From Bispira polyomma (Eukaryota): DNA of 64,000 nucleotides. The position numbers were made by a program, and so were the translations under genes. Below the pieces are notes generated by a model. That model was given only the letters and a program-made list of their open reading frames with translations, was not told the DNA's origin and did no database searches. Of this stretch, positions 39,801 to 62,716 are shown in pieces. The stretch lies in assembly GCA_965649765.1 (NCBI GenBank), contig OZ287751.1, positions 28,644,001 to 28,708,000 on the forward strand, given 5' to 3'. Every line of letters begins with the position of its first letter. The stretch's first letter is position 1.

Positions 39801-42800
39801 TGTTTCTTCCTGGTCGGGACAAGGTAGTTTATATTGGTACAAATATTCATTCAGTGTACAGTTGAACAACAATATTGTCTGAATTGTGAGTTTGCCCTTT
39901 GACATTAAAAAAAAAGACCTTGACCTAAAAATCCTTTGTCTGGCCTAGATTTTGACAACTTCATGTCACAGGAAGCATGCAATACTTTATTACAAATATT
40001 TGTTTAAGGGTGTAGATGTGCAACATTTGACCTTGGAATTATGAAATGAACTTAAACAAAACATTTTCAGACTGCTATATGTCAGTAATAACAACTTACC
40101 AGACACAAAAAGTTTACATTTGGTTTAAACATCTACGCGGAGTACAATTGTGCAACATTCTTGTGCGACTTTATTTGACGTAGTGATGACCTGAACTTTA
40201 AAATCTTTAAATGCCATTATATCTCATTGACAATTTGTCACAGGGTGTTGGGTTGTGGCTTTTCTAGTTTGTTTATGTTAACAACAGTATAAAGTTGAAA
40301 GTGTTATCGTAACTAAATACAGTAGAATTTCCATTGTATGCACTTCTATTTTTCGAATTTTGATTTTCTGACTTCCACATATATTGACAAGTAATCTTGC
40401 AAAGGAAAAAGCACAGTGTGCTGAAGAGAAAACCAATTTCTTTCTTTTGAATTGTTTTCAGTGGAATGTTTACACCATTAAAAATAATCATCTCTTTACA
40501 TCTCCTCGAACACTAATGACACTTGAGTTCACAGAGTTCAAAGTTAAACAAAAGATACGCTTGTCGACTATAATATCATCAAACCGACAAATGTATGATT
40601 CTTTGATTGTAAATTGCCACTGTCCCTTTGTGGTCAGATAATAGAGGTTCTACTGCACATGTATCTGTCTTATCACATAGTTTTTGTTTCACTTTGTATT
40701 GGGTGTAGGTACTATGCCTTGTATTCAGTAGACTGTATGTTAGGACGACTATTATCCAAACTTCTGCTGTCCTAATATTCAATTTTGATGAATTCAATCT
40801 CACTCTTCTAAAATAAGGATTTAATATTGTATGATACTGAAATACCTCTTCTATTCTAAAAACCTTTTCATTATTCAGACAAATGCTCACTCTCCCAAGT
40901 TGTTCGGATAAAAGCATTGTGTACTGAAAATCTATATATATAAATAAAAATAAAGCACATTTAATGTGCAGAACCACTTATAGATCAAAATCTATATAAA
41001 ACTCGACATATTTAAAATACAGCATGTATTTGAATGAGATCTATTTATCTATTTATTTACATTAGATTGCTACAATTGTGGACGAGTTGGCCCCCTTGGT
41101 GAAAGGGGACAAGCTGGTGCTCCTGGTCTAATCCGTGGACAAGCTGGTTCCCGTGGTGAGCCTGGTGGTGCCCCTGGTGCTCCTCCAAGAACTGATAATG
41201 TAGATTTACCACCAGAATCACCTATTCGTGAAACAGATGACATACTGAAAGAGCCACAACGGATCAGAACAGAGTTCCCCGAGACTTGGTTGTGGCATGA
41301 TCTTGTTGCAGGGTGAGTCTCAGATATTACATCCAAGGTTTTAACATTACCTGAATGTACACAGGTTGTCCTAAGAGCATACCTTATTCATCTAAATAAA
41401 TGCACCCCTTCCTCCTCTTCCAGCTCTGACTTCTTAATTTGTTACAAATATCTTATATTTGGACAAAACTGTCGACCATTTCAGACCGATTTTGAGTGTT
41501 CAAATTTCAGCATGTAACATTTTGTAATTTGAACTTTACAAAATGACAAATTTTTTAGTAAAAACGATGTTTATAGGCAGAGAGAGAAGATTGCCATGAA
41601 AAAACATGACACGGCTGTGTCAGCAATTGTGAATGACAGAAAACTTCTGTAAAAATCACCATATATACCATATACACATGTGCGATTTTTTGTCAGTAGA
41701 TGCCTGGTGGAAAATTATATAGTTCCTCCAGTAACATATAATATTCCTATGAATACAGTAGAATTCATTTACCGCAATTATTTTATATATTCTATTAGAA
41801 TCGGAATAACACATTCCAAACCTACGATATACAGTAACTTTTACCACTCTTGGAGGGTAGGAACACTCGGGCTTCACCTTCGGGTTACTACACATCCAAT
41901 GATGGTAAATATTACCGTATACCATGGTTTGTTATGTGTTATTTCTTAATTGATTAAGCTCATTTATTAGCGCGAGTATTTAAGTAAGGTAAATGATGTT
42001 GTTAGAAACACCATTTATTTTGATGAAATGTTACCAATTTTAGGGGTTCACATTTTAGCGTGAGATGGTTTTAGTATCAGATGAATAAACACATTTCAGT
42101 ATAAGCTTTCCAAATTGCCAATTTTTAGCGGAAACGATGTATAGAGATATTTAGAGAGAGTGGTCACAGTAAATACAACCTTAAAGCTTTAATTACCACT
42201 CAACTACACCTCCAATCCTTGGTGTCAAATAGTTGCTCCCCCGTCACTTGCAAAAAGCATCACCCTGGGCATTTATTTGGATAAATACCCAAGTTCAAAC
42301 GGAATCTACTATGAAAACACCTTGTTCTATTATAGATCAAGGAGTTTTCAAAAGAAAATATCATACGTTGTAGTTGTATTACATTTCTTAATTCTAGAGC
42401 AGTTGATAAATAAAGGTGGTGTGGGAATCATTTACAATTTCCTCGAAAAATAATATATTTGTGGCTTATATTATTCATATTACACATACAGTTGAACCCC
42501 TTTAAGTCAAATCTCAAGGAACCAGAAAAAAACTTTTACTTAAGCAGGATTTCCACTTGTCAATTTTAAAGGAAAATGCCTCTGTGGGACTAGAAATTCT
42601 GCTCCACAAAAAGGATAATTGAGTTAACAAAGTTCTACTTAAAGGGGTTCAACTGTATAGTAGTATCACTGATAGACCCGATAGTAAGGGGTGACACAAC
42701 AGTTGTATTAATTACAATATAGTATCAATGATGTAAATATATCTGTTACCTGTTTAATATATGTGTCTATATATATACAAACCTAGCCGTAAGTCATTTA

Positions 42801-45800
42801 CTTGGACTCAAGTCCCTGACACTATCACCTCTTGAGTAACAAGTGTCATTGTGTGTACTTGCATGCAGCTGTAATTACATTATAGTATGCATGTTCTAAA
42901 CACATCTACTGTCACCTGCATACGTTATATGACACAATGACAGATCTTATTGCAAGGCATCTACACAGACTTAAGTCCTTGTTCTGAAAATAACTGTAAT
43001 TATATTAGAGTATTCATGTTGTAACCATACCTATTGTCTGTGGTATATATGTATATTACTACAAACCTGATGGTACAGTTTCCTTCCTGTCTCATATCCC
43101 TGATAGGTCCATCAACTCCTGGGTAGTTAGTGATAATGTTTGGTTTTACTGTCTACAGCTCTGTAACATTATAGTATTATATCTATCTGTTTATAGGCCT
43201 GATGGAAAGGTCTCTCTCCAGACTAAAGTCGCTGATACAATCATTTCCTGAGTGGCTACTGTTATTGTTTGGTTTTACTGTATAAAGTTCTGTAACGGTC
43301 TTACAAATTATACCATAGTATTATGTATACATGTATCTATTTATAGACCTGATGGAAAGGTCTCCCTGCAGGCTAAAGTCCCTAATACCATCACCTCCTA
43401 CTGTGGTTACTGTTATTGTTTGGTTTTACTGTATAAAGCTCTGCAATGGGGATACAAATTATACCATAGTATTATGTATACATGTATCTATTTATAGACC
43501 TGATGGAAAGGTCTCTCTCCAGTCTAAAGTCCCTGATACCATCACCTCCTACTGTGGTTACTGTTATTGTTTGGTTTTACTGTATAAAGTTCTGTAACGG
43601 TAATACAAATGATAAGATTGTATTATATATACATATATCTATTTATAGACCTGATGGAAAGGTCTCTCTGCAGACTAAAGTCCCTGATACAATCACCTCC
43701 TGGGTGGCTAGTGCTTTTGTTTGGTTTTACTGTATAAAGTTCTGTAACGGTCATACAAATGATACTTTAGCATTATATATACATGTATCTATTTATAGAC
43801 CTGATGGAAAAGTCTCCCTGCAGGCTAAAGTCCCTGATACCATCACCTCCTGGGTGGCTAGTGCTTTTGCTCTACATCACCAAGATGGACTGGGTATAGC
43901 GCCTAACACTGCCAAGGTATGGCCTTTGAAACAACTACATGTATATAGAGATTTTTTATCTGATGTAAGATCAGTAAACCTCTACTGTCCAAACTTGTTT
44001 GGAAAGCAAGACTTAAATAATAAGAAGAGTCAGTCATCAAATAGAAGAGCTATTTTAAAATTAGTACAAGACAAAGTATATTGCAATTTCAGATGAAAGG
44101 GGTTCAAAAGATCCAATATGGAATAATAGAAGGTTAAACCAGTAACTGAAACAAGTAATTCTGGTACTTAAACATGTGCATATTCTAAAATCAATCACTA
44201 CTTTCAGCTGACTGTCTCTTGTAATAAGACACCAGGGTTCACTGTATCCCTACTGTCAGCTGAGTGTCTCTTGTAATATAACAACAGTTTTTTACTGTAT
44301 CCCTACTGTCAGCTGAGTGTCTCTTGTAATATAACAACAGTTTTTCACTGTATCCCTACTGTCAGCTGATTGTCTCTTGTAATAAGACAACAGGGTTCAC
44401 TGTATCCCTACTTTTAGCTGATTGTCTCTTGTAATATAACAACAGGGTTTCATTGTATCCCTACTAATGGCTGACTTTCTCTTGTAATATAACAACAGTG
44501 TTTCACTGTGTCCCTACTTTCAGCTGACTGTCTCCAAGCCTTGGTTTGTTTCCCTGGATCTTCCCTACTCAATGATTCGAGGTGAAGAAGTTGCCCTGAA
44601 AGTCAATGTATTCAATTACCTGACAGAAGATATCCGTGTATGTATTATAAATGCATACAGTTAAGTACAGTATTCAATTACCTGACAGACGATGTCAATG
44701 TATGTATTATTATTTTTTTAATTCATATGGTTTCTACTTCACCCTAGTCATCCTTTACCTTACCCACAGGTTGCTGGTTCGACTCCCACTAATTCTGTTC
44801 ATACCAACTGGAATTACTGGCAATACTGTTACTTCAACTTAAGCAGGATTGGAGATAAAAGGATATGCCAACATCTAATGTTTTTCCGGGGTTTTTTTCC
44901 AATGCTTTTTAGTCACACACTCAGGTAGTATCTAAAGGATGTTATTTTTTTATTTGCTCCCCCCTAACACTCTACATAAACCTAATTCTTGCTCTTTCAG
45001 GGTGTTGTTACACTGAAAGCTTCCACCGAGTTCAATGTGCGTCACCCTAGCTTTGGTGGAAAACCAATGGGAGGTGAAGAAGTCATGAAGGAGATCTTTG
45101 TAAGTACAGGAAGGAATAGAACATCTGCCCATATCTAAAATTGACTACCTGTAGCATTATATAAAATAGTTCACAGAATTTGTATATCTATGTAAACTTA
45201 GATCCATTGCTTTATCTTTCTCCATTCTATTTTTGTTTAGAAAGTTGAACCCTGGTCACAAATGTCACATATATGATGGATTTCTTACTGTCCTTATTCT
45301 TTTAAACTAGGTCTTCTAGGTTGAAAGAAGTTAAACTAGAAGAATGGTCTTTATGCTCATCAAAAGTACACACTGTCATTGGTCAAGAAGATTTAACATT
45401 GTTGAACCTATTCTAATGTTGTGACAAATTAGTGACTTTGTTTTAGTGTTATGTGTTAAATTGGATAATGTTCATTGTTTTTCTCATGCATATTTTTACA
45501 CATATTACTTTTTCAATAAACAAGATGTTTTGTTTTGTATGTATAGTTATTAGAGCAACTATCATCAATGTGTACTTTTCAATTGAAAATTTATATCAAA
45601 GAGTAATGAGTTTATCAAACGCTCATAGATATAAAATATAATAACTTTTTGAAGTGTGAATATGCTGGCACCATCAGACACTCAAATGGGTTAAAATTGT
45701 CTAATTTACTGTACCATCTGTCTCATATACAGGTTGAATCAAGGCATTTTATTGTTGCCTCAGAATCAAAATATATCATTATTATCTTATTACAGGTGAA

Positions 45801-48800
45801 ATCAAGGGATCTTATTCTTGCCTCAGAATCAGAATATACTATTCTCATCTCATTATAGGTAGAATCTATTAGGTAGATAGGTAAATCTTATTAATTTCTC
45901 AGAATCAGGCTAGTATATAATTCTTAACTTATTACAGGTAGAATCAAGGGGATTCTATTGTGTTTCTCAGAATCAGGCTCTACCATTGTCATCTTATTAT
46001 AGGTAGAACCAGGAGATCTTATTCTGGCCTAATCAGAATATATCATTCTTTTCTTATAACAGGTAGAAACAGGTGATCTTATTCTTGCCTCAGAATCATA
46101 ATATATATCATTCTTATCACAATACAGGTGGAATCAGGAAATCTTATTAATTCCTTAGACTTAGGTTAATTCTTAACTTATTACATGTAGAATCAATGGA
46201 TCTTATTCTTGCATCAGAATCAGAATATACCATTCCCATCTTATTGACTTCCTCAGAATCAGGCTATATCATACTCAACTCATTACAAGTAAAATCAGGA
46301 GATGTTATTCTTGCCTCAGAATCAGAATATACCATTCTTATTGTATTACAGGTAGAATAAAGGGATCTTATTCTTCCCTTAAAATCAGACTATACCAAGC
46401 TTATCTCATTACAGGTAGAATCAGGGGATCTTGCCTTAGAATCATGCTATACCATTCTTATCTCATTACAGATAGAATCAGAACATCGTATTGTTATCTC
46501 AAAATCAGGTTGTACTTTTATTTTATTACAGGTAAAATTAGATCTTTTTCTGGCCTCTGAATCAGAAGAAATTATTGTTTTCGTATTACAGGTACAATCA
46601 GGTGATGCTACACTTGTCTCTTTCTGGATTGTACCTCTTGTACTGGGCGAAGTGTCTCTGACTGTGGAAGCCAGATCTACAATGGCTGCTGATGCACTTA
46701 CAAGAACCATTCTAGTTGAGGTAATAGAGTCCTTAATACAGGACTATATATAGGAAAGTCTTTTGGTAGGAACCATGTAATACAGGAAATTCTTTCAGTA
46801 TATACCAGGCAATAAGAAATTATGTCAGTATAGGCCATGCAATATAGGACACTCTTTCGGTATGGACCATGTAATACAGGAAACTCTTTCAGTATATACC
46901 AGGCAAAATGGGACACTCTTTCAGTATGGGCCATGCAATAAGAAATTATATCAGTATAGACCATGCAATAAGAAATTATATCAGTATAAACCATGCAATA
47001 TAGGACACTCTTTCAGTATAGGCTATGCAATAAGAAATTCTATCATTATAGACCATGCAATATAGGAAACTCTTTCAGTATAGACCTTGGAATATAGGAA
47101 ACTCTTTCAGTATAGGCCATGAAATATAGGAAACTCTTTCAGTATAGACCATGGAATATAGGACACTCTTTCAGTATAGGCCATGCAATATAGGAAACTC
47201 TTTCAATATAGGCCATGCAATACAGGGAAACTCTTTCAGTATAGAACATGGAATATAGGAAACTCTTTCAGTATGGGCCATGCAATAAAAAATTCTATCA
47301 GTATGGACCAGGCAATATAGAAAACTCTTTCAGTATAGACCAGGCAATATAGGAAACTCTTTTAGTATAGACCAGGCAATATAGGAAACTCTTTTAGTAT
47401 AGACCATGCAATATAGGAAACTCTTTCAGTATAGACCATGCAATATCGGACACTCTTTCAGTATAGGCTATGCAATAAGAAATTCTATCAGTATAGACCA
47501 TGCAATATAGGAAACTCTTTCAGTATAGACCATGGAATATAGGACACTCTGTCAGTATAGGCCATGGAATATAGGAAACTCTTTCAGTATAGACCATGCA
47601 ATATCGGACACTCTTTCAGTATAGGCCATGGAATATAGGACATTCTTTCAATATAGGCTATGCAATATAGGAAACTCTTTCAGTATAGACCATGGAATAT
47701 AGGAAATTCTTTCAGTATAGACCATGGAATATAGGACAAGCTTTCAGTATAGGCCATGCAATATAGGAACTCATAAACTTATAATCCAAAACCATTAGTT
47801 TATGAGGTCGGCTGTTCCTCCTGAAAATCATGCACTACCTAATTTATATTGAAATAATTATGTAACAAATAAACATCTCCAAAAGAGATAGTTTTGCAAA
47901 AGGTTACTCAGTCTGTTTATTAATGTATATATACATTTACCTTGCAAGTAAAATGTTTGTATATAAAGGGAATATATAATGTGTTGCATGATAGTGTGAA
48001 TATATTACTGACTTTGGCAAGGTATACAAATGTTTGGACAAACTATTATATTTTCAAAGACAGTTCACATACCTAGGCTAGGGCCCGCATTCAAGATCCA
48101 AGCCACGGTAACGTTGCAAAATATCACCGAGATCATTGATGGACTAAAATTCATTGTGTATATTGTAATTTTTGTCACAAACTAAAAAAGGGGCTGTTAT
48201 TGAAGAAAACAATCATGTTAATCTATGGCGGTATAACATAATGGAATTTACATACTGCTATGCTTTTTCACACAATTAACCTACACAAGTCACTGTTTTA
48301 ACAACGTTTACACTGCTTGAAGGAGAGATGTAATAAAATCATATTTAACTTTTAATGTTACAGTAGTTCCTGCGGAAATTTTGGTATTTATAGACTTAAA
48401 TATGTCTTTAGAGGTGGATGGCTATAATGAGAGAGGCGCCTTTATTATAGAAAATACAGTATTTGTGTATATGCAGCAGTCATGATGGGCAGTATTTACA
48501 AATTGTTCTTTGGTGGCATTACAGTAAATGTATAATAAGCAAAATTAATGCCCTCATGAATGCCACTCGATCGAGGACTGCCAATTTGTCATGATATGGC
48601 GTGACACCACGACAGTTTTGACAATGTTAGTTCAAACCCCTGTAGAGCTTATTGATTAATGTTGAATAGCTTTAAAAGTACACAATTCTCTAGGAGGTCA
48701 ATTTTCTAGGAGGTCAGTTCTCCGGGTACCATTCTCCACAGTCTTACCCCCCTCCAACTTAAAGAATAGCAACATGTGCTACTTCTATGTCATTTGTAGC

Positions 48801-51800
48801 TCCGATAAATGTTAAATGGAACATTTGTGGAACTCTACATTAATTTAACAAAAAGCTACAAGATTTTACCTCCCCAGATTTAGAGGTTATAGTTGAAATA
48901 ATACTGCTTAGATGCATAGTACAGTATCTAAAGTGATATTTTATTGTTTCAACCTAACAGCCAGAGGGCGAGGAACAAGAACATGGTGTACCAGTCCTAA
49001 TCAGTCTGCATGACGGTGACCAGTCACAACAAGAAGTGATATCCATAGAGTATCCTAGTGAGGTGGTAGACGGTTCTCAGAGGGCTCTGTTCACAGCCTA
49101 TGGTTGGTTTGTTTATATAATCATTGACTAAATATGGGTGATGTTCTAGTGTCCCAAGGTTCAACAAGAAGTGGTATCCATAGAGTATCCAAGTGAGGGG
49201 GTGGTAGACAGAATTCAAAGCTAGTGCTCTCTTTACAGTCTTTGGTTTGTTTATTACAAGAAGTTGTATCCCTACAGTATCATAGTGAGGGGTGGTAGGT
49301 AAATTTGGTTAAGTTAATATCCCCTTGTATTTTGAGGACAATCGGCAGTCTCGCTAAGGTAGTTTCTTTTAAAATCTACCCTGTAATAGGTGAAAATCCT
49401 CCTTCAGTAAAAGTATTTCTGTTCATCCCTTGAGGCTTGACTTTAAAGGGGCGTTAACTGTATCACAAGGGTAACTGTATGGATTTATCTTTCCATATGA
49501 AGAGCATTCACAAAATTCTCTTTTGGCCATGTGCTCTTTTTAACCCACAGACCATTGGCACTTGTTGGTGTATAGTGTCATCTATTGTGTGAGCCTGCCT
49601 ATTGGATGAGTGACTCAATTGTCTGAACTATATCTCAGGAACTGCTTGTTACAGGAAGTAAATATTTGATACAACTATTCCTTGGGATGGAGAGCCATGG
49701 ATTAACAGTTTGCAACCTAATTGTAATGACTTTTAATCATTTTGACTTTTGCCCTTGAAGTTATGACCTTAAAACTATTCCCTGGAATATATGTCAGGGA
49801 TTAAATATTAAAAGAGTTTCATTTTTAGTACAAATATGCCTTGATACTGTGAATGCTATTTTTAGAATGCAATGCTAAATAGCCTATAATTATGGTTTTA
49901 TCGCTGTATTCTGGAGCATATACAGTTGTGTGCATATCAAGTGTCTGAAAAACTAGAACTACCATAAGTTATAAGTTCAGACTTGTATTCAGAAAATATA
50001 AATGGTTCAACTATTGGATATGTGTGTAAACCATGAATCGGTTCAAAGACTTGGTTTCTTCACAACAAGCAATATCATGCAAAGTACAGCACAGCTTAAT
50101 GACATTTGATTCAGTGAATGGCATGAACAAGAGGGCTCATACAGCTATTGGTCCATCTCAGCTTGAGTTTCCGCCGATTTTATCAAATTGATTTAAAAAC
50201 CGAAAGGAATATTATCAAGAACGAAGATGATTTGTGACAATATTTTACAGTTTGGACGGATCTCAAAATCAATATATCAGTGCCATAAGTAGGACATCGT
50301 CACAAATATTACACATTGTAAAGATAATAACTCCTCAAATTGGACCCTTGACATATAAAAGAAACATACTTCACTGAATATAATCAGATAAGAACATTTT
50401 TTGTTTTTTAATTCAAAAGCATGGAGACAGATGATAGGTGATATGAATTTGTGTCTGAGATTTTCTTTCTAAGTGTAACTATGCCATTTTCAGGTGACCT
50501 TATGGGTCCTTCGCTGGGTGGTCTGGACAAGTTACTAAGGATGCCTTACGGCTGTGGTGAACAAAACATGATCAATTTTGCCCCCAGTATCTACATTTTG
50601 TCTTACCTGAAGCAGACAGGTACCGTGACACCTGAGATAGAAGCCAAGGCTATCAGAGTCATGGAATCAGGTAATACAAACTCTGTTGTATATTACTGTG
50701 GTTTTTTAAGTATCAGTCCCTCCAGACAGTCCTTGTGGGGTTGGGGTTTAGTTACTGATAAAATAGATCTTTATTAATGTGCCCTAAATATGCAACATCA
50801 ATGGGATAATTAACAGGATAATCAATAGTATAGTCCTGCAACACAGTATTATAGTCACTCAAAAGGTATAAATTAAATGGTTAAATATTAAAATTGAAAA
50901 CAGCAATTGATAGCTTTAATATATATTTGTACCTAAGTCTGTAGTGACAAGCATAAAGATAACCAAGACATTAGTGCAGTTTCTAATACAATCTGCAACT
51001 CCAACCATTAAGTCTAATTTCTCTTTAACTACATGTACAACCAATTTCTTGCTCCCAGTATTCAAACATACTAGTTTTAAAATAGGTGAAATTAGGAGAT
51101 AGCCATAAGAATTAAGAACTAAACCCTGTGTATGTTGGACATTCCACTTTTACTCTATTTTTATCCTAATTTTTTTGATGCCTAGGTAGGGGCCGTGGTT
51201 GCCTAGTGGTTAGCAAGCATTGCGCTTCGCAATCACTGGTCTCACTTCTGGACATCGACAAGCGTGGGTGCGCCTTCCGTCGATGTCTATGTGAGAAAGG
51301 TGGTAGTTCCTTACTGTGGGCCGCTGGTTTCAGTGCAGAACCTTGGCCAACTGTATGCAGTGTTTCCTCCAGCGTTTGCAACTACCCGTCCCAGTATAAC
51401 CTAAACAGATTCTAGAGCAGACGTTAAATATCCCAAGTCCAAAAAAAAAAAAAATTTGATGCCTAGGTTATCAGCAAAGCAGACGACATTTGTTACTCCC
51501 AGACAGTGCCTATGTCTGTCAGCAAGCAATAACCACCCCCAAAAAATTATTTTAGTTTTCATTAGTTCCTCGAAATAGGAAATTGTTAGTACAGCAGACT
51601 CCTTTTTAAAAAAATTATACGTGTTGAATAAAACATTAGCCAGTGGTGTGTGTTATAGTGACTCCAGCTATCTGTAACCTATTACCAAAACATTTCCTTC
51701 AGTTCCCGGTGATAGTTTTCTCTGTGGTCGAAAGGATTAAAAAGATCTATTTGTGAGTTATTTTTACTTTAGGGTATCAAAGAGAGCTTTCATACCACAG

Positions 51801-54800
51801 GAAAGATGGAGCATTCAGTGCATTTGGTGAAAGTGATGCCAGTGGCAGTACTTGGTCAGTAATCCATGCAATAATATATATAACCTTAATCTTACAGTGC
51901 TATCTTCAAGCTGAAATTTTAACTGCAGAAACATTCACTTTTTTAGTATTGCTAAGACTGTTATTGAATTGGGTCATTTGTATTATTTTAAAACTCCCCT
52001 TTCTTATGTTTCTTAATAAAATGCATGTATTTTACAGTTGGGAGCTCTCCTGACAAATTAATAATGGCAGTAAGCAAGAGTGTTCTGTGGAATTCCTCTT
52101 CACGTCATTAGAGGCAGTATAATTAGACTGTTATAAAATTATCATGATCAAACAAATAAAACAAATACTTACATATGAGTATGTACAGTCTCCTGAGTTT
52201 TGCCAACCCTTCACCACCTCCCTATTCTAAAATAAAACTCAATGTTAGCATCAAAGGAAACAGCTTTGATGGATATAATGCACAATCGAGTTACACTGAG
52301 TCTACTCTACTGTATTGTAGCTTATTAGGCATAGTTAGGTATACTTTGTATCACAAAAAATTTGTAGTTCATTGTGAATTCATTTGTCATGCTTATGCTG
52401 AAAAGTAAATCAAATTTCACGTTTCATATTTTAAGTGCGATGACTTAAATATGTAAATATGTGTATGTATATTCACTTCTTTGATAACAAAACCACAATA
52501 ATGCTATCAGTCATTTGAAGAATATTCACCTATAGTAGCTCTGATATTAACAAGTGACCTTGACCTAGAATTTACCAGTTGTGTCAGCTGACACTGATAG
52601 TGACTCTCATCAAATGCTTCTTCTTCTGTCTATTGCACAGGCTTACCGCCTTCGTCATACGGTGTTTCCACCAAGCCAAGCCTTACATCACTATCGACCA
52701 GACCATCATCGACCAAGCTGTGAGGTTTATCATACGATACACTGGGGAAAGTAGAGAGTTTACGGTAATTATGCAGATATACACCTCTAAAGTAAAGATC
52801 ATTATACTGATGTTGAGATAAACTTGTAAAGTAAAGATTATTGTAAAACTCTATTATAGAAACTCGATCTCTTTTGGAAATCTTTATGGTTAAAAGATAC
52901 GTCCTTTTCTACAGAAATTGCAGATTATTTAAAAAAATGCCATGTCTTCTTTCTGGCCCTTTTGTATTTAGAAACCAAAGCTTTAGTACCTGATCGAAAC
53001 CTGCTATATATATGCAGTAGAACCTCTGTTATACAACCTTCTATTGTCTAAATATTCGATTTTATGAACTAAGTTTCACTCTCCCACATCTATGTTTCCC
53101 TACTTCTTTGTGCATAAATGCCACTTCTTTTTTATGAACCTTTTATTTGTCCGAACAAAAAAGTTATTGCTTTTCCAACATGTTTGAATAATAGAGTTTC
53201 TACTACGTATCAGAATTTCTACTGTTACAATGTCAATATAAAATAGCTATTGTTATTAATATTATACATTCTTATACTTTAGTGGAGAATCTTAATTGAG
53301 TTCAGTGGGACGTAACATGTATTAATATTATTATTTTCTAAGTTAAATATGGTTAATGGTGAGTGTGGTACCTGTGTTTCCGTAAAGACGTTTCTCCGAT
53401 TTATTGAAGCTGAGTGCTCCACCCTCTACATGTATCTTTGTGATGTTTGTATGTTTACAGGAACCAGGCCGGGTGTCCAATTCTAGGTTACAAGGTGGAA
53501 GTTCTAAGGGTGTTAGTTTGACTGCTTACATCACAGCCAGTTTGCTGGAGAATAAAGAGGACCTTTCTTCAGTAAGAACATTAATTGTCTAGATTTTTAT
53601 GTTGCACTTTAATACTGCACTGAAATAATTTTAGGAGTCAACCCCTTATGTTGATAAGTTTATTTTCCATTAATGATCCAAAAAAATATGTAATCCTTCA
53701 AAGATTTTTTAAGGTCCACCCTCTTACTTGAGAATCCTGCTCAGGTACATATAAATTTATTTCTCAGGTTTGACGTAAAGGGATTAAACTGTGTTTAAAG
53801 GTGTAAAAACCATGGACATGGACCTCTTTTGTGTTAATATTAACCCTTTGTTGTTAGCCAGCAGCCAACAGCATTTCTCACTCCCAGAACCAGTCCCAGA
53901 AACTTTGTTTATTTCCCATTGGTTCCTGACAATGGAAAATTGTTGGTGCAGCAGAATCCCCCATTTAAAAAAATTAAAACGCGAGGTCGTTATTGAATGC
54001 TGGAAGTATTCTGTGGTGTGTGTTTCAGCAAGTCCAACTAGCTGTAACCTATTAAGGAAAAAGTTCCTTCAGGTGCCACTGATAGTTTTCGCTTATTAGG
54101 TTTGAAAGGGTTAACAACATGAAAGTCAAGTAAAAGCATTATACACATCTGACTCATTATCAAACTATAACTCTACATCTAACTTTCTTACCCCACAATC
54201 ATTAATGCCTTGAGGGAATATTGTTGTACAAATGTTGAGTATGCAGGCGGGTGGGTAGTCTGGCGGTTGTCTTCCTTAACTGGACTAGATCTCAAAAGAA
54301 CTTTTAACTGGAGTTCATATTTGATCAAAAATAGTCATTCAGGAGTACAGTTGTGTAATATCTCTTGATCTGACCTTAATTTGACCTTTGACTTTGAAAT
54401 TATGAGCCTGTCCTTTGAAATCTTGTCTGAACTAGATCACAGGAACTACATGTCACAGGAAGTACATATTTAGTTTACATATCCAAAAATAAATGTAGAT
54501 GTGGAACATCATTGTCTGAAGTTATTTTGTCCTTAGACCTTTGACTTTTACCTTCGAATTTTGTGTGGGTAATATATCTCAGTAATTGCTTCATACATCT
54601 CAAAGAAGGTTTAGAGGTGCTACAAATATTCTCTGGGAAGCATTGTTGTGCAATATCAATCCTCATTTTGAGCTGAAAAACATTTTTTGGGGCTACAGTT
54701 GAGTAACTTTTATTAGCCGAAATAACTGGGTTATTTAAAATATTCTCTGGGGAGCATTGTTGTGCAATATCATGGTTTGTCCTCATTTTGACCTGAAAAA

Positions 54801-57800
54801 CATTTTTTGGGCTATAGTTGAGTAACTTTTATTAGCCGAAATAACTGGGTTATTTATATAAATCATGTGGTGATCAAGTTTCAGAAACCTTAATTTCTAC
54901 ACAATTGAATTCAATAAACTTTACCTATTTTTGGTGATCTAGTCAGGTCCCATTTTGGTTATATGCATTTTTAGTACCTTAACTTATTCACATGCAAAGT
55001 TCTATGTCATGCATGCATAAGTCTACAAAATAACAAATAGTCTTTGATTTAAGGTATTTATATTGTATTGTTAGTTTTAGAGACTTTATTCTGTACACCA
55101 ATTTGGTACATTTGCCATTGAACTTGCAGGATATTTTCTATTCTGCTGAGAGAGCGATTCAGTCAGCCATCATATATCTAGAAGGTCAATTAGAGGACAT
55201 TAAAACTGACCCTTATGTCCTTTCACTGGTGACCTACACATTAACACTGGGAAAGAGCCCCAAGGCTGCTCAGGCTTTGCAGTATCTAAATGATCTGGCT
55301 ACAAATAATGGTAAGTGAAGCAGACGCTATCTAATCTAATCATACTTTTATAGCGCTATATCTTCGTACAACAAATTCTAAGGCGCAACTAACCTAAGCA
55401 TTAATCAAAAAAAAAAATGTGGAATGGATGGTGGTCATAACCAGAAAGACTACCGGGATGGTTGCAACGGCCTAGGGGGAAAGGCCTGTTCGAAAAGATA
55501 GGCCTTCAGCTTACTCCTAAAAGAGGAGAACGTTTAAGCCAAGCGAACATGATCAGGCAGGCTGTTCCATATGAAGGGGCCATCGCGAGCAAGGCAATGA
55601 TTAAAATGTACTTTGGATTTGAGGATGTGGGGGTTGAAACTGGGAATATTAACATATAATTTATCAGGGTTACTGTGCCTAGTCCTGACTGAGCATGTAT
55701 ATTTGAAGAGATGGGGGCTGAAATAGGTGGGTGATCCAGAATTTAGAAATTTGTATATAATTGTTGCAGTTTTGAAAGCAACACAATATTTTATTGGGAG
55801 CCAGTGTGGAGTGACTTGAGTACAGGAGTAATATGAGAAAATTTATTTCTAAACCAATCAATTTTAGAAATTTATTACTTAACCAATTAATTTTAGAGAA
55901 TTATGTTATAATAAGTAATGTTGTATTGATTATCATTTATAACCTCTTTTATCCTTATTGGTAGAACACAATTTTGTTTAGATAACACAGAAAGTTTATT
56001 AAATAGACAAATTTAGTATAAAACAATAGGAAACTGGCTATGTTGGGAGAGTGAATTTACATATTTGAATATTTGGATAATAGAACTTTTGATAGTAATA
56101 GAGGTTATTTTGTATAAACTCATAAACAATCTAACCTCCATTATACACAATAAGTGTTAAAAGTTGATCAGTGCATGAATATAATTATGTCGTTGTTTTG
56201 CCTTACTTTCGATACCACACTGAGTCACTCCCTTTTTTTAATTGTACAGAATACTGAAAAAAGCAAAGCTTTCAAAGTAACTTTCAAGGAAACACAGTCA
56301 ACATGCTTTATATGAAAATATAACTACCAAGTCACTACTAGCAATGACATGTTTCTCAAATACGAAATGAAAGAGTAGCATCTCCTTCAAACAACTTACA
56401 TACTTTATGTACAAGAACAAACACAATTAAATTAAGTTTTATTTAAATTTTATTACTTTAATATGAGTAATAACAGCATCGGGGGGGCTTTGGATTATTT
56501 TTTCACACATTTATTAAAGAAATCAATTTGGATATGTGTAACATAGTGTGAAATCATGGTAATATGTATCAATTCAATTATCTATAGACTATCTAGATGC
56601 TTAACTGTAACACAGATTTTGACATTTGGTAAAGCTTGAATTGCAAAGTGGTAGATGCTAAAATGTGGAACACTTAAAATCAGTCCAAGAAGGCTCACAA
56701 CTTATTTGTAAACAACAGTTGTCCTTTAAAAAGACACAGGCGAACAGTATGATATACAGTCGAACCCCTTTAAGTAGAATTCTGTTAAGTCATATTCCCT
56801 GTTATGTGGAGACAAAATTGAAGTCCCATGAATGCCTTTTCCTTTCAAATTTACCCTGTTAAGTGGAAATCCTGCTTAAGTAGAGGTATTATTCCTGGTT
56901 CCTTGAAGTTCTACTTAAAGGGGTTCAACTGTACACAAACATTGAATATGATTACTATATACTCAGACAAATCTGACACCCTTCAGTTTAAACAGGTCGA
57001 TTGCTTCCATACTCAGTTTGAACAAGCCGATTGCTTTCAACCAATTCATGAAGGCCTTGCATATTATTTCTAAAATGGCGTTGACTTTTTCAATGGCGGC
57101 ACCCTTTTCAGAATGAAAACAACATGAGACTGCACCTTTTTTTTCATATATATATATATGTCACAGGCCAAATTAAAATTCAGGCGGATTTTAAATCAAA
57201 ATTTTAATTTGGTCTAGGCAGATTTTAAATCCGCCTAGGCGAGATTAAAATTTTGATTTTGCCTAGGCCGAATTAAAATTTCTAAGTTTGTCTAATAGAA
57301 TTTTAATCTCGCCTAGGCGGATTGACCAATCTGACATATACACACATATACATTACAATACAATATATAGACATACGCACATACATAAAAGGAACAAAAG
57401 ACATACTGATCTTGATTTAAAATAAAAAATTAATGAATGACATTTTGTATAAAAATCCAGTTTTACAGAATTAATCAATAATTTTTAAAGAGAAAGGAAG
57501 GTAAGGTTTGATTCTTACAATAATATAAAAATGTGGCTTAAGGTTTCCACCAATTTATTATTCACCCCTTTAAATTTGTAGAGGTTGTATAAAGCCTTAG
57601 TTCTTCTTTATTTCGATTGAAAAAACATGGTAGAATATAGGTTTATTTTTTAGTATTTATGACCTTGCTATATCAATTGACTTACACGATTGGATCATTG
57701 ATTTTTCTGTTGTGCTTTACAAGATGCCTAGCATCAATAAAGTGCGTTGAAAATGCATAATAATAATAATAACAGTATTTATGTGAAAAATATGGTATTT

Positions 57801-60800
57801 TTAGGCAGAGAGACTTATTGGAAGAAGGAAGAGGAAGAGAGAGAGATTGAGCCATACTATTGGTGGAGGTATCGCCCAGCCAACGCCTACAATGTAGAGA
57901 TGACATCGTACAGCCTCCTCACTTATACAGAGATGGGCAAGGTAGTAGAAGGTTCTAAAATCGTGTTCTGGCTGGCGAAACAAAGGAACAGCTTAGGGGG
58001 ATTCAGATCTACACAGGTGAGCCAATGCTACATTTCGTTGTTCTACTAACAGTATCTATCTTAAGGTGCTATGATGTGTAAGATTATTACAATTTAATAA
58101 ATGCAGTTGAGCCCCTTGTCCCTGGTAACAACCCTTTTTCTGTCCACCACAATATGACTACTGAACAATGACTTTAGTTGTTGCGCTGTATGGAGAATAA
58201 AAGCATTTACGGATTAGATTAGTCGAATCTCAAGGGACCAGGAGAAGTACATCTACTTAAGCAGGATTCTCACTTAACAGTGAGGCGATACTGTGATAAT
58301 GGCGATAGTGTGATTATGATAAAGCACTGAAGGATTTGTATTATTTGAAGTTGTATAATCCAAATATTGATCAGTTTATTAAACTTTTTTTGCACATAAT
58401 ATTTTGAACTTTATAACGATGGATGGCCTAGTGGTTAGATGCATTTACTGGAGACCTGACGGAGGTGTAGTGATAAGACACTTGCCTCAAACTCCTGCTG
58501 TCATGGGCATGCTGCATATGATATACATTTGGCAGTAGACTTGCTGATGGATGATAGTTTTGAAAAGAAAAAAGGGACGTTTCCCTGAAATAAACAAATA
58601 GATGCACTTACTTTTGCACAATCCCCCAAACTCAAACTGTGACACTATTATACTACAAGTAAATCATCACATCTATTATTGTCATACTGAAAGATTCTGA
58701 CTCTTCAGATGATAGAGGTTTGTAACCTTTCTGTGTGTATATGTTTTTTAGAGTTGAACTAGAATATCTGCATTCTATTTTATATCTTCCAAAGTTTTAG
58801 TAAGCCACCGTTGGTATGGTACTGGAGATACTATTTATTGCCTGATATGTATGTAAATCACAAGGTATATAACCTAATACTTTGTTATATAGGACACAAT
58901 AATTCCTCTACAAGTCAGTTTAAGTAGAATAATATAGGTATGGGCACAGCATAGATCTTCAATACTTTGTTATATAGGACACAATAATTGCTCTACAGGT
59001 CAGTTTTAGTGGGCTAATAAAGGTATGGGCACTGCCATAGATCTTTTTACAGTTCCAAATTAATGACAGCACTGCGCATGTCTGCTATTAATTCTGGGAA
59101 AAAGTCCCCCCCCCCATAAACAATCAGATGTCAAAGTTTGAAGACACCTGTGAGCTGTTCTTACAATAATTAACTATTAAATATTTAGGTACTAAAAGAC
59201 ACACGTTTAGATTAATTACAATACAAATTGACCATTGTATGCGGAATAAGGGGATTAGCTTTACCCATAATGCATAGCATGTTCCCACTGACTCCTTAAC
59301 CATAAGAAGGTCTATATGAGGATCGGCGTTTCCCGTTTGTTTTAAATGTGAAAAACGGCAATTTTTATTGGTAAAAAATTGAAGTATTCTAAAAAATAAT
59401 CCAGTTGAATATAAACAGATTGTGTGTTAAAAATTAATCAACAGCAATATAAACTGCTTAGCATTTTTTTAAATGCCTATATTTTTGTGAGGTACAACTA
59501 CTTTTAGTTTGGTACTGTGGGCTTTCTTACGTCCTCGATATCCCATGCATTGACCATACATACAGTCTAATTAGATATAACTCACAAGGTGTATATGTCA
59601 CTTTATTATACAGGACACAGTGATTGCTCTCCAGGCCATGTCAGATTTCCAGTCTGCACTAGGAGTGACCGAAGAACAAGAGATCAACATCCACTTGCAA
59701 GTAGATGACGTGGAGCACACCTTCCAGACCATTAACTCAGACAACGCACTTCTACTCCAGTCTTACGAGGTAGGATCTTGCCGGACTGCTAAGGCTATAG
59801 CAAAGATTTGAATTATATCAATTTAGTGGCACCCCCTTAAAGAGGTTTATATCAACCAATTTGAAACCTAAATTATTGTACAATGTATTTCTTTTTTGCT
59901 TAAAAGTCAAATAGTGGGACATGTATTTCTTTATTTGTGGTCACTTCCATGGCCTAGTGGTTCGACTCCTGGTGAAACAATAATGGTCAATGCTGGTTAC
60001 ACTCTTGACCAACATTTGTACACGCCATTGCTGATGATGACTATTTAACTATGTATTAGGATTACAAATGTTATTATTATGAATTTTCAACGCGCTTTGT
60101 TGATGCTAGGCATCTATTAAAGCGCAACAGTAGAATCAGTGATCCAATCGTAAAATCCATGGGCATAGCAGAGTTGTAAGGAAAGAGGTGGGAGCGTGCA
60201 CAAGGTAAGCTAAGGTGGGTAGGCAAGGTTAAACAGATGGGTTTTAAGCTTTTTTATAAAACAGATGAGTGTATCAACTGATCTGAGGTCAACTGGGAGA
60301 CTGTTCCATAACAAAGGAGCTGCAAAGGAGAACGCTCTGGATCCCGCCTTCCTGATGGGTCTGACCGAAGAAACAGAGAGTCTGTTGCCTCTCTTGCGGT
60401 CACTAAAAGAGAAAAGGGAAGCCAGGTAGGAGGGCCATCGAGTGACTACAGCCTTAAAAGTGGTGGTGTGTATTTTGAACGAAATAAGAGAGTGAATAGG
60501 TAGCCAGTGTAATTTTTTGAGGTAAGGATTGACATCTAATAATGATTTTTTGATTTTGATGGTGTTCTTTAAAGATGTCTGACATCAGGATGGCATGTTA
60601 AAATATACAATAGAATAATAAAACTGTTATACCTCTTTCTTCAGGTTCCCTCAGCCATTCATAATGTCACCATAGAAGCCACTGGTAAAGGGATTGCCTT
60701 ATTGCAGGCGAGTTTTTTCTGGTATTTACATTCTACAAACAAAATCAACAGAAATATTTTTCCTTTATTTGTTTGAAAAAGAAACAAGTGCTACTTGTGA

Positions 60801-62716
60801 ACTGGTAAACTTAATCAGAAAATTTATATTCCTTCAGAATATTCATTTCAAACGGATCATCTTTACCCATTTGAGATTTTGTTTCAGACTATTGAGTCAG
60901 TCATTAGAGCAATAAACTCAAAGTGAACACATACTGTTATTGATGAAACTCTTATTAGCACATTTTGAACCTTATATATATTAGAGCATTTTAATTCCAA
61001 CAATTTACAATAAGACATCTCGCAAAGATCAATCAAGAACAGTGTCACATTAAAAATGAAATAATACCAATTTTATACATGTGTAGGCAACTTAGCTTTT
61101 CTTACCGTTCTCTTCTCCAGATGAACATTTTCTACCACCAGTTGGAAGGGGAATCTGAGGAAGGGCTGGAGATTAATGTGGTATCAACATCAGCAAACCA
61201 AGAGGTTCAAACACAAGTTTGTGTTAGGTAAGGTTTCTCAGAAAAGCTCTGAAAGTATTTATGCCAAGGCGACAACTGTATTGCTAAAGCTGGTTTTCTT
61301 TCTATAAATTTTGGGCATAATTTGTTTGCATGGTGTCATCATAAGAATAATGTAATGATTTTCATAAGGTATAGCAACACCATATATCACACCTGCTGTT
61401 GTTTATGCTAAGGCAGATGAAATGTTGTATTGCCATATTTATCCGAATAAATTCCCTGGGGTGATGCAACAATGGCCACTAACTGATAAAAACACAAAAA
61501 CGCTTTTGTGGGACAACAGACATTTTCTTCACTTAAAAAAAGAAAACCAACTAAAGATAGTTCACCTTAAGGTTTTGACTGTAGTTAAAATATATTTTTT
61601 TAGTCCTAATTTTAACTCCCCTTTGGGCAATGAATCTACAGTACAATGTTGTATTATCATAGTTGTTTTGTATAATGTCACACAGATGAGAATTGGTCAT
61701 TAATATGTCATATATATTCAATTCCATTGGTCAATGAGTGTTCAGGTACTATGGTTGCCAAATTTTACTCAAACAAAGTTATTCTAGCATGATCATGCAT
61801 CCGGTTCAGATGTGCAATGAAATCATAAAACCGAGTTGCTCCATGACAAATATCAGTCTTATCAAAATATTATTACATATTCTAGTAGTCTTACCTTGAA
61901 CATTTCAATGTTTAGATGGGTTCGTGAGGAGGAAAGTGGAATGGTTGTTATAGAGATGGGCCTTCCTACTGCTTACGTACCTGTCACAGAGACTCTGTTA
62001 GCAGAGTATGGTCACCTAGGACTGAAGAGATATGAAGTGACTGACAGAAAGCTGGTTCTCTACTTGGATGAGGTAATTCAGCTCCTGTGCCTTTAACTTA
62101 TCCCACATTTTAACAAGAGTTGTCTTTTAAAAAAGACATAGGTGCACAATAGTGTGAAATACAATAACATTGATGTGGCCACTATATACTCAGGCCCTAG
62201 GCTTCACCTGACAACAATAAATCTGATACCATTCATTTTGGACGATTCGATTGCTTCCAACCAATCCATGAAGGCCTTACATATTTTATGACGTCAACCA
62301 TATTTTTCTTACCCTTTTTTGGAATGACAACAATATCAGGCTGTGCCTGAATAAAAACATATACTAAACTATTTGTGAACACAGCATCTGACATACAGTA
62401 GATCGAACCTCTATTATCTAAACATGTTACTGGAGAGCAAAATTTTGATGGTTCATCAAAAAGAATAAGAATTTTAACCCATATAGGTTGTAATCTATGG
62501 GTTATAATATTAACCCAACCTGTTAGTATGAATGTCTGTGTGCATTGATGAAAATATTCCCGATTGTATCTGTACAATACTAATACAAGACCTGTGTGTT
62601 TACTATTTGACAGGTGACAGTGAGTGAGTTGTGTATGTCAGTGACATCTGTCAATGTATCTCCTGTGTCCAACTTGCAAGAGGCTATGGTCCTTGTCTAC
62701 CAGTACTATACTCCAG
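9825..62716 (+). CDS. CD109: Thioester-containing protein (alpha-2-macroglobulin family, CD109-like / invertebrate TEP); 36 coding exons in window, 3' end beyond window
   Basis: Hand-spliced exons chain with consistent phases (35 GT donors, 1 GC donor) into about 1463 codons with no stop. Family motifs: signal peptide, [96 protein letters not shown], and a C-terminal receptor-binding/MG8 region. The symbol means 'CD109-like'; orthology is not established. Confidence 0.95.
10950..11139. mobile_element. Tc1/mariner-pogo-type MITE (CAGT termini, TA TSD); family copies also at about 10700-10902, 24314-24505, 25320-25504, 25569-25760, 53015-53205
   Basis: ta|cagtggaacctctattatc ... atagaggttctactg|ta. 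Confidence 0.85.
12393..12571. mobile_element. MITE with TIR taaagggctctacagacttcccacgaca
   Basis: About 28-bp imperfect TIRs. Confidence 0.75.
12921..13084 (+). CDS. TEP exon 2 ([20 protein letters not shown]..., MG1)
   Basis: poly-T-ag acceptor, g|gtaagc donor, typical MG1 start. Confidence 0.92.
16427..16452 (+). CDS. TEP exon 3, 26-nt microexon (EMQDIITLE)
   Basis: T-tract-ggcag acceptor, gag|gtaagt donor; supplies the phase 1 to phase 0 change needed between exons 2 and 4. Confidence 0.8.
17819..17978 (+). CDS. TEP exon 4 (IPEQLTG...[12 protein letters not shown])
   Basis: MG2 TDKxxYKPG motif; canonical splice sites. Confidence 0.93.
18034..18767. mobile_element. GC-rich non-autonomous DNA transposon with TIR tggtggttccac
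   Basis: tggtggttccac ... gtggaaccacca termini; abrupt rise in GC and CpG; no credible ORF. Confidence 0.7.
19116..19186 (+). CDS. TEP exon 5 ([24 protein letters not shown])
   Basis: ttcag acceptor, acg|gtatat donor, phases fit. Confidence 0.9.
20221..20349 (+). CDS. TEP exon 6 ([10 protein letters not shown]...[11 protein letters not shown])
   Basis: MG2 DPxxxRIKQW and LGxW motifs. Confidence 0.93.
21014..21053 (+). CDS. TEP exon 7 ([13 protein letters not shown])
   Basis: Joins exon 8 to give F-T-V-L-E-Y-V-L-P-K-F. Confidence 0.9.
21497..22891 (-). mobile_element. 5'-truncated L2/CR1-group LINE, reverse transcriptase and C-terminal region, decayed
   Basis: [59 protein letters not shown]; in-frame stops; (atcta)n tail at about 21497. 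Confidence 0.93.
22963..23047 (+). CDS. TEP exon 8 ([14 protein letters not shown]...)
   Basis: EYVLPKF hallmark motif. Confidence 0.93.
24157..24271 (+). CDS. TEP exon 9 (YTFGQPVKG...)
   Basis: MG3 YTFGxPVKG motif. Confidence 0.93.
25320..25504. mobile_element. Tc1/mariner-pogo-type MITE
   Basis: Intact TIRs flanked by TA. Confidence 0.85.
25842..25950. mobile_element. ~110-bp near-perfect hairpin MITE (also 9024-9134)
   Basis: gggcccgtatt...aata(t/c)gggccc, fold-back arms of about 45 bp. Confidence 0.8.
26232..26371 (+). CDS. TEP exon 10 ([10 protein letters not shown]...[13 protein letters not shown]...)
   Basis: tttacag acceptor; only the gc|gtaagt donor at 26371/26372 gives the phase 2 that exon 11 needs. 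Confidence 0.85.
26503..26713. mobile_element. MITE with TIR tagagtaaggaatc (also 15354-15550, partial at about 1430)
   Basis: Long imperfect terminal inverted repeats. Confidence 0.75.
26885..27178 (-). mobile_element. tRNA-derived SINE with CORE-like block
   Basis: ggttcgatcc B box followed by tgtacccttggacaaggtgctttac, resembling the CORE domain. Confidence 0.65.
27419..27578 (+). CDS. TEP exon 11 (...VKETLTGK...TPTTFKTGL)
   Basis: VxExLTG and FKxGL motifs of MG3/MG4. Confidence 0.92.
27860..28445 (-). mobile_element. L2-like 3' fragment (same family as 60076) interrupted by a SINE
   Basis: Colinear similarity with 60076-60400 on both sides of the SINE. Confidence 0.75.
28135..28388 (-). 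mobile_element. tRNA-derived SINE family A, 14-bp TSD
   Basis: A/B-box head; TSD ccttcttggtgggt at 28121-28134 and 28389-28402. Confidence 0.88.
28785..29005 (+). mobile_element. L2-like 3' tail, opposite orientation
   Basis: Reverse-complement match to 27860-28080. Confidence 0.7.
29240..29343 (+). CDS. TEP exon 12 (IWLKKVDNS...)
   Basis: Canonical sites, phases fit. Confidence 0.85.
30570..30880 (+). mobile_element. tRNA-derived SINE family B (relatives at about 5290-5550, 8705-8860, 19830-20110, 25795-26110)
   Basis: tggtctagtggttag head; shared gataacatc..ggcaagat and taaagatccttggggacg blocks. Confidence 0.7.
30963..31068 (+). CDS. TEP exon 13 (SYMDDKETW...YCEVN)
   Basis: Canonical sites, phases fit. 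Confidence 0.85.
31822..31926 (+). CDS. TEP exon 14 (VQFKYAETT...GPVQ)
   Basis: Canonical sites, phases fit. Confidence 0.85.
32402..32662 (+). mobile_element. tRNA-derived SINE family A
   Basis: tggcctagt..ggtttgactcc head, shared body, A-rich tail, degenerate TSD. Confidence 0.85.
32734..33038. mobile_element. piggyBac-type MITE (TTAA|CCC...GGG|TTAA); copies at 53844-54110 and about 51150-51740
   Basis: Termini, TSD and shared internal sequence. Confidence 0.75.
33521..33583 (+). CDS. TEP exon 15 (PDTTVLFNV...IYIQ)
   Basis: ttttag acceptor, cag|gtgaga donor. Confidence 0.87.
33680..35441. mobile_element. Two 879-bp non-autonomous TTAA-target DNA transposons in inverted orientation sharing one TTAA
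   Basis: TTAA at 33676-79, 34559-62 and 35442-45; TIR ggctttagtaacgtaaacac; internal sequences are reverse complements. Confidence 0.8.
36074..36280 (+). CDS. TEP exon 16 (FISKGKII...[10 protein letters not shown]...[14 protein letters not shown])
   Basis: MG5 SKGxI, LAP and DS motifs. Confidence 0.92.
36596..36745 (+). CDS. TEP exon 17 (...EPG...[20 protein letters not shown])
   Basis: MG6 / linker hallmark motif. Confidence 0.95.
37711..37830 (+). CDS. TEP exon 18 ([40 protein letters not shown], linker)
   Basis: ggcag acceptor, aga|gtaagt donor, 120 nt. Confidence 0.9.
38791..38839 (+). CDS. TEP exon 19 ([16 protein letters not shown])
   Basis: AGLxVxTD motif preceding the bait region. 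Confidence 0.9.
39307..39554 (-). mobile_element. tRNA-derived SINE family A, 13-bp TSD
   Basis: TSD agttctacaagag at 39294-39306 and 39555-39567. Confidence 0.88.
41066..41312 (+). CDS. TEP exon 20: bait region with Gly-X-Y run, then [10 protein letters not shown]
   Basis: attag acceptor, gg|gtgagt donor; translates [41 protein letters not shown]...[18 protein letters not shown]. Confidence 0.93.
42489..42655. mobile_element. Second CAGT/TA MITE family (also about 801-991, 56757-56931, 63778-63953)
   Basis: ta|cagttgaacccctttaagt ... acttaaaggggttcaactg|ta. Confidence 0.85.
42670..43870 (+). repeat. ~150-bp tandem array derived from the exon 21 acceptor and 5' half
   Basis: Exon-start copies at 42676, 42781, 42944, 43065, 43197, 43347, 43498, 43649 and the real exon at 43799. 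Confidence 0.92.
43799..43916 (+). CDS. TEP exon 21 ([23 protein letters not shown]...GLGIA)
   Basis: VPDTITSW hallmark; the only repeat copy that continues to a donor. Confidence 0.93.
44195..44535 (+). repeat. 52-53-bp tandem array derived from the exon 22 acceptor
   Basis: Six copies of ccctactttcag|ctgactgtctc upstream of the real site. Confidence 0.92.
44524..44637 (+). CDS. TEP exon 22 ([21 protein letters not shown]...FNYL)
   Basis: MG7 LPYSxxRGE and FNY motifs. Confidence 0.95.
45001..45099 (+). CDS. TEP exon 23 (GVVTLKAS...KEIF)
   Basis: Canonical sites, 99 nt. Confidence 0.88.
45712..46606 (+). repeat. ~60-63-bp tandem array derived from the exon 24 acceptor
   Basis: About 13 copies of ttattacag|gtagaatcagg(g)gat; the real site reads tattacag|gtacaatcaggtgat. 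Confidence 0.9.
46592..46720 (+). CDS. TEP exon 24 ([15 protein letters not shown]...[12 protein letters not shown])
   Basis: MG7 end motif DAxxxxxLVEPEG spans exons 24 and 25. Confidence 0.92.
46770..47770 (+). repeat. 32-bp minisatellite, about 31 copies
   Basis: Unit gtatagaccatgcaatataggaaactctttca. Confidence 0.95.
48961..49102 (+). CDS. TEP exon 25 (PEGEEQE...[13 protein letters not shown])
   Basis: CUB segment VxGS motif; phase-1 donor. Confidence 0.92.
50494..50670 (+). CDS. TEP exon 26 with intact thioester motif GCGEQ (50550-50564)
   Basis: [18 protein letters not shown]. Confidence 0.98.
51189..51454 (+). mobile_element. tRNA-derived SINE family A, poly(A) tail, 14-bp TSD
   Basis: TSD tttgatgcctaggt at 51174-51187 and 51455-51468. 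Confidence 0.9.
51773..51854 (+). CDS. TEP exon 27 ([19 protein letters not shown]...GST)
   Basis: Thioester-domain hallmark. Confidence 0.96.
52641..52764 (+). CDS. TEP exon 28 ([13 protein letters not shown]...)
   Basis: STWLTAFV hallmark. Confidence 0.96.
53461..53571 (+). CDS. TEP exon 29 ([13 protein letters not shown]...[11 protein letters not shown])
   Basis: Catalytic-loop region and LTAY motif. Confidence 0.95.
54626..54856 (+). repeat. Local tandem duplication, about 115 bp x2
   Basis: atattctctggg...aataactgggttattta occurs twice. Confidence 0.85.
55130..55310 (+). CDS. TEP exon 30 (...[14 protein letters not shown]...)
   Basis: Thioester-domain helix motif. Confidence 0.93.
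55329..55815 (-). mobile_element. L2-like LINE 3' fragment
   Basis: Same (atcta)n tail and ttttatagcgct end as the 21.5-kb element; remnant of LHWLP...LFEQAFPP. Confidence 0.75.
56757..56931. mobile_element. Second CAGT/TA MITE family copy
   Basis: TIRs and TA TSD. Confidence 0.85.
57805..58016 (+). CDS. TEP exon 31 (...VEMTSYSLL...[16 protein letters not shown])
   Basis: VExTSY and GGFxSTQ hallmarks. Confidence 0.96.
59614..59769 (+). CDS. TEP exon 32 ([10 protein letters not shown]...NALLLQSYE)
   Basis: STQ|DTVIALQA hallmark. Confidence 0.95.
60076..60535 (-). mobile_element. L2-like LINE 3' fragment (second family)
   Basis: Translates [11 protein letters not shown]...[17 protein letters not shown]...KKLKTHLF. 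Confidence 0.85.
60645..60707 (+). CDS. TEP exon 33 ([21 protein letters not shown]), GC donor
   Basis: AxGxGxAxxQ motif; donor cag|gcgagt. Confidence 0.88.
61121..61227 (+). CDS. TEP exon 34 (MNIFYH...QVCV)
   Basis: Canonical sites, phases fit. Confidence 0.88.
61916..62072 (+). CDS. TEP exon 35 ([14 protein letters not shown]...LVLYLDE)
   Basis: Receptor-binding/MG8 domain motifs. Confidence 0.94.
62614..62716 (+). CDS. TEP exon 36 (...[17 protein letters not shown]); gene continues past window
   Basis: VYxYYxP motif; phase-1 donor g|gtatgt; no stop codon reached. Confidence 0.92.

Follow-up and report, generated by a model that had tools for sequence, protein, structure and literature searches.

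Introduction

In the thioester proteins C3, C4B and A2ML1, a histidine at the catalytic position confers reactivity towards hydroxyls (PMC7864068), and a second account, which divides the family into three branches with the CD109-like proteins forming one of them, concurs on this chemistry (PMC9156758). When the histidine of A2ML1 was exchanged for asparagine (H1084N), reactivity with glycine was kept and reactivity with glycerol was gone, and thermolysin was trapped by the wild type and the mutant alike (PMC7864068). According to the same source, hydroxyl reactivity depends on further factors, wild-type A2M still esterifies tyrosine, and the catalytic-residue trait is possibly neutral. Other residues are on record at this position: C4A carries Asp (PMC7016707), Asp also replaces His in the snail protein BgTEP and in fly TEP2, and Ser is reported in mollusc A2Ms (PMC2935394, PMC7016707).

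The roles described for these proteins are varied. Human CD109, a His-type protein that is cleaved at a furin site and shed from its anchored MG8 domain, is a protease inhibitor (PMC12927315), and inhibition of a bacterial metalloprotease by fly Tep2 and Tep4 depends on the thioester (PMC12846816). Human A2M, which has Asn at position 1088 and an amine-biased thioester, circulates in this account as a soluble tetramer and does not need a covalent bond to trap proteases (PMC7864068). The Asp-type BgTEP, by contrast, turned up together with parasite antigens, and phagocytosis requires the Asp-type fly TEP2 (PMC2935394), and therefore loss of His does not imply trapping. Literature searches covering few subscription papers listed none that deals with an annelid CD109 carrying Asn or with a TEP whose bait is collagen-like.

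Here we analyse a window of 64,000 nucleotides from Bispira polyomma, positions 28,644,001-28,708,000 of a contig referred to below as C4, within a genome of 1.035 Gb. The window holds a CD109/iTEP-type gene in which Asn stands in place of the catalytic His. We consider it likely that the product is a surface-anchored protease trap that bonds lysines in preference to hydroxyls, and that the replacement is a recurrent one-base retuning of the chemistry and not a switch to A2M function.

Results

The exon model, which was guided by tblastn with 17 homologues and is a prediction throughout, places 36 coding exons of the gene on the + strand of the window (9825..62716); an exon at 21014-21053 completes the 38-exon model, the last two exons of which lie just past the window end, at window-equivalent positions 64097-64183 and 66332-66444. 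The predicted product of about 1,528 aa is free of internal stops, and all introns are GT-AG but one, a GC-AG intron after 60707. The join that results from this non-canonical donor, predicted at 60707-60709, agrees with the nearest relative, P0240. The predicted order of parts begins with a signal-peptide-like hydrophobic N-terminus in the first coding exon (9825..9898, + strand; mean hydropathy 2.17 over residues 6-20) and continues through MG domains, one bait exon, an intact thioester motif GCGEQ (50550..50564, + strand, with its Cys at 50553-50555) and the receptor-binding MG8 exons (61916..62716, + strand), the first of which matches Pfam A2M_recep at E 1.9e-8. It closes with a cysteine cluster, a small-residue site and a hydrophobic tail (final 17 residues, mean hydropathy 1.99), a GPI-like ending from which the protein is predicted to be anchored at the cell surface. 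The 1,528-aa model aligns over its whole length with CD109-like proteins, at 30-36% identity, and has the full MG-bait-CUB-TED-MG8 chain with a signal peptide, its size lying within the range of about 1,400-1,550 aa usual for this type.

Human CD109 (PDB 8s3o, 9fx2) is the top solved-structure match to both exons of the thioester domain (TED), and it shares with the window protein the spacing of 114 residues from the thioester Cys to the catalytic position, a predicted GPI tail, and the bait and thioester architecture. It differs in having His where the window protein has Asn, in the Gly-X-Y richness of the window protein's bait, and in its furin site, since no basic furin cluster occurs at either linker of the window protein, including the one at which human CD109 is cut (PMC12927315).

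Several other features lie within and around the gene. Five tandem arrays (36254-36428, 37526-37777, 43167-43860, 44194-44534 and 45728-46565, with periods of 57-60, 104, 151, 53 and 63) are apparently made of an exon edge together with its splice site, the 151-base array containing incomplete copies of the first part of exon 43799. A 32-base intronic minisatellite of about 31 copies occupies 46748-47769, and very high-copy short intronic repeats at 51190-51420 and 55340-55400, with a summed contig depth of 10^5 to 10^7, are probably SINE-like. On the minus strand an intronic remnant of a LINE-type reverse transcriptase spans 21641-22906 (Pfam RVT_1 E 1.3e-23), and shorter 3' fragments similar to it lie near 55537-55842 and 60213-60584. 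The neighbouring gene, which runs in the opposite direction, encodes an Arf-family GTPase, presumably ARL3-like (exon 2725-2952, minus strand; Pfam Arf E 3e-11).

The catalytic loop of the thioester domain is encoded by an exon of 111 bases on the + strand (53461..53571), bounded by a tttacag acceptor directly upstream and a gtaaga donor. Its first part (53461-53499, + strand) encodes [13 protein letters not shown]. At the position of the catalytic His stands the Asn codon AAT (53479..53481), one base from CAT, and at +2 from it is Arg (53485..53487), a place held by Asp or Glu in the majority of His-type relatives. Numbered along the spliced model, the thioester Cys falls at residue 991 and the Asn at residue 1105, and the exon aligns ungapped with residues 1050-1079 of human CD109 (8s3o) so that His faces Asn; the first-pass annotation had placed the Asn about 114 residues past the thioester Cys from the letters alone, and the model and alignment bear this out. 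By match ranges the Asn also corresponds to A2M position 1088 (6tav: query 3-30 = 1084-1111) and to chain position 1066 of A2ML1 (7q1y: query 3-35 = 1062-1094), the latter presumably being precursor position 1084 once a signal of 18 residues is added. A2M 1088 and A2ML1 1084 are the catalytic positions as numbered in PMC7864068, occupied by Asn in A2M and by His in A2ML1. The exon matches positions 135-166 of Pfam TED_complement at E 0.00085, short of the curated cut-off. A contig of 973 bases over the codon showed 0 differences in 3/3 DNA runs, which come from a single study and no more than 2 samples; this agreement is not independent because the runs are possibly the assembly's own source. 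No RNA run was listed for the region, a result that carries no information on expression. The wording PGRVIH..QGG, earlier attributed to the His-bearing loops of C3, C4B and CD109 together, was found literally in CD109 alone. C3 and C4B are not known to have more than the His in common with that loop.

For family placement, trees were built on the C-terminal half (model residues 772-1325): 377 proteins were fetched, of which 334 cover the region, and adding the window model and six fragments of paralogues gave 341 rows, reduced to 307 unique ones and to 220 after thinning at 80% identity. The sister of the window protein is the His-bearing P0240, for which the MG3-MG5 region gave no closer named orthologue above ~34%, and in the unrooted tree, which has no C3 outgroup, the window protein falls in a clade with four paralogues from its own genome and the CD109s of Lamellibrachia, Ridgeia and Helobdella (SH-aLRT 98), a placement that fits an annelid source. 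In a 50-row IQ-TREE analysis a single branch (SH-aLRT 95) set the 13 A2M-like rows apart from the rest, and a tree constrained to hold the window protein among the A2Ms was 74 log-likelihood units worse and was rejected (p-AU 0.0035; LG+G4, quick search, with the A2M set picked with an earlier tree in view). Judged by these sequence comparisons the protein is of the CD109/iTEP type and does not belong to the A2M branch, as the first reading had held in assigning it a CD109 scaffold. It has the thioester in its TED, the full chain and the tree position of this type and lacks the catalytic His, an absence that does not bar membership because 65/188 scored CD109-like rows are also without it; nor is Asn at the A2M 1088 position diagnostic of A2M, because only 9/30 A2M-like rows carry it.

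Loss of the catalytic His turned out to be common. Among the best 150 representatives at 50% identity obtained with an annelid CD109 query, the site holds His in 95, Asp in 21, Asn in 15, Ser in 10, other residues in 8 and a gap in 1, so that 54/150 have a non-His residue, which is Asp, Asn or Ser in 46/54; the residues that occur there across relatives include N, D, S, Y, A, T, F, R, K and L. The 189 non-A2M rows of the tree divide into His 123, Asp 23, Asn 17, Ser 14, other 11 and gap 1, and when the loop columns are left out of tree building the 188 scored CD109-like rows require at least 37 His/non-His changes and at least 16 Asn/non-Asn changes. Close sisters are split between His and Asn, as with two Biomphalaria proteins and with Xenopus laevis (His) and X. 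tropicalis. The X. tropicalis CD109 (P0116, P0108) has the NSRLQGG loop of the window protein, identical and on the same scaffold, by a separate origin of the Asn and without a Gly-X-Y bait. A single origin for seven Asn-bearing CD109s was rejected (p-AU 6.6e-6). Asn on a CD109 scaffold is thus not unusual, and neither can it serve as a signature of A2M: the 30 A2M-like rows comprise 20 with His, 9 with Asn and 1 with Asp, and the A2M-like gene of this very genome (contig C2, 5.35 Mb) has His, the reverse of the scheme proposed earlier.

In C3 the acid at +2 probably partners the catalytic His. Among representatives with an intact thioester it is present in 63/93 with His and in 4/14 with Asn, and it was lost together with His in about 17/35 independent pairs as compared with 0.3 in the opposite direction (median p 3e-5), a joint loss that is consistent with a genuine loss of the catalytic pair. 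The first matches also hinted at a coupling of Asn with Arg at +2, which was not supported among the representatives (2/14 vs 2/93, p=0.08); only the loss of the +2 acid held up.

Several iTEPs resemble the window protein in lacking His and keeping the thioester intact, namely Biomphalaria BgTEP (Asp1054), Drosophila TEP2 (Asp) and the Ammothea TEP BAR45605 (Asn), and CD109-like proteins of Patella, Saccostrea, Anneissia and Lingula combine Asn with an intact thioester; within this group the residue and the bait differ, and several members have a cysteine-rich C-terminus that lacks a hydrophobic anchor. The change from His to Asn is an ordinary, recurrent variant of the family, and the residue alone marks no new function. 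Since loss of His in iTEP/CD109 proteins is already published for the Asp-type BgTEP and TEP2 of the fly, and databases hold many cases, the single substitution matters little.

The bait region is encoded by a single exon (41066..41312, + strand) that ends in the conserved motif FPETWLW; it is the only FPETW-type exon in the window, where no alternative bait exons for this gene were found. It contains a Gly/Pro/Arg-rich segment of 36 residues without Lys (41080..41187, + strand) with 10 interrupted Gly-X-Y triplets, a number reached by 0/20,000 shuffles of a segment that was picked by eye. The match to Pfam Collagen (E 0.02, 15.1 bits) stays under the 27.2 cut-off, and the uninterrupted Gly-X-Y run of a collagen triple-helix domain is absent. 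Baits could be extracted for 123/220 rows, and the window bait has the most triplets of these 123; such a survey under-samples because many relatives splice alternative baits and databases give one isoform per gene. Runs of at least 3 triplets occur in 6/39 non-His and 7/84 His proteins (p=0.34), and P0257, of the same annelid-type clade, pairs His with an 8-triplet Gly-X-Y bait, so that the collagen-like bait does not lend the independent support to a protease-directed Asn that had been claimed for it. Lamellibrachia P0006 (Asp, with a Gly-rich repeat) was considered as a parallel case and set aside, its repeat being an extended N-terminal array of low complexity in an incomplete model.

Discussion

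The reading that we favour, with reasonable though not high confidence, is that of a tethered trap of CD109/iTEP type. A protease would cut the Gly/Pro/Arg-rich bait, and the cleavage would bring about a conformational change exposing the thioester between Cys991 and Gln994. Lacking a His that could form an acyl-imidazole, this bond would then react mainly with amines of the attacking protease. The window protein is likely to be amine-only because A2ML1 H1084N loses its glycerol reactivity, and the proposed shift of the chemistry towards amines was accordingly a fair one (PMC7864068). The same cannot be said of convergence on A2M function: protease trapping is already present in His-type human CD109 and A2ML1 (PMC12927315, PMC7864068), and since these proteins and also fly Tep2 and Tep4 act on proteases, trapping is probably a standing function of the family that the window protein probably inherited. 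Human A2M, at whose catalytic position the same residue stands, belongs to another branch. It follows that the His/Asn residue is unusable for calling a thioester protein an opsonin or a protease trap.

The sister P0240 has His and no Gly-X-Y bait, and therefore both traits differ on the branch of the window protein. Gly-Pro sites resemble collagenase targets, and the bait is the richest in triplets of all those scored. Together these points would suit a history in which the Asn and the collagen-like bait evolved together and turned a hydroxyl-tagging opsonin into an A2M-like trap for collagenolytic proteases. We think this quite unlikely, as the two traits show no association across relatives, P0257 carries a triplet-rich bait with His, and His-type CD109 and A2ML1 already trap, His widening and not blocking this activity (PMC12927315, PMC7864068). 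Nor do we give better prospects to the idea that the protein is a tag of the C4A kind, forming amide bonds to surface proteins of microbes or parasites instead of inhibiting proteases; the Asp of C4A (PMC7016707) and the association of Asp-type BgTEP with parasite antigens and of TEP2 with phagocytosis (PMC2935394) speak for it, but the predicted GPI tail and the lack of a basic furin cluster suggest tethering to the host cell, a situation better suited to a trap than to a soluble opsonin.

About as unlikely, in our judgement, is that the substitution is near-neutral, the main role of the protein being non-covalent (for example as a signalling co-receptor) or the gene being a paralogue under relaxed constraint. 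The many residues seen at the site, with four different ones among five paralogues of this genome, would be expected on such an account, and trait neutrality is allowed for in PMC7864068; however, the thioester and the entire reading frame are intact, and the replacements concentrate in Asp, Asn and Ser. Inheritance of a trapping function with a retuned thioester is the reading that we prefer.

The genome holds four further CD109-type genes on C4, a lower bound as for all our genome searches, each with GCGEQ intact and with His (42.50 Mb), Ala (42.86 Mb), Tyr (35.75 Mb) and Tyr (35.64 Mb) at the catalytic site, so that with the Asn of the window gene five paralogues have four different catalytic residues. 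The His paralogue has at least 15 copies of a bait-type exon (C4:42,450,900-42,487,500), mostly Asp/Glu/Pro-rich and one with a stop, an array of apparently alternative bait exons similar to the cassette of scallop and abalone TEP isoforms. It is conceivable, if unlikely, that the CD109 paralogues have split thioester chemistry and bait design among themselves in the manner of C4A and C4B, Asn going with one collagen-mimic bait and His being paired with 15 or more alternative baits of acidic composition, beside the Ala, Tyr and Tyr forms, in which case the Asn gene would be a tethered surface trap for collagen-cutting proteases. Five paralogues with four catalytic residues, together with a His-type A2M-like gene, make a natural panel for relating chemistry, bait and target. 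A divergent family member without the thioester, with GSAEQ in its place, lies at C4:70,053,107-70,053,280 and resembles the macroglobulin complement-related (MCR) type.
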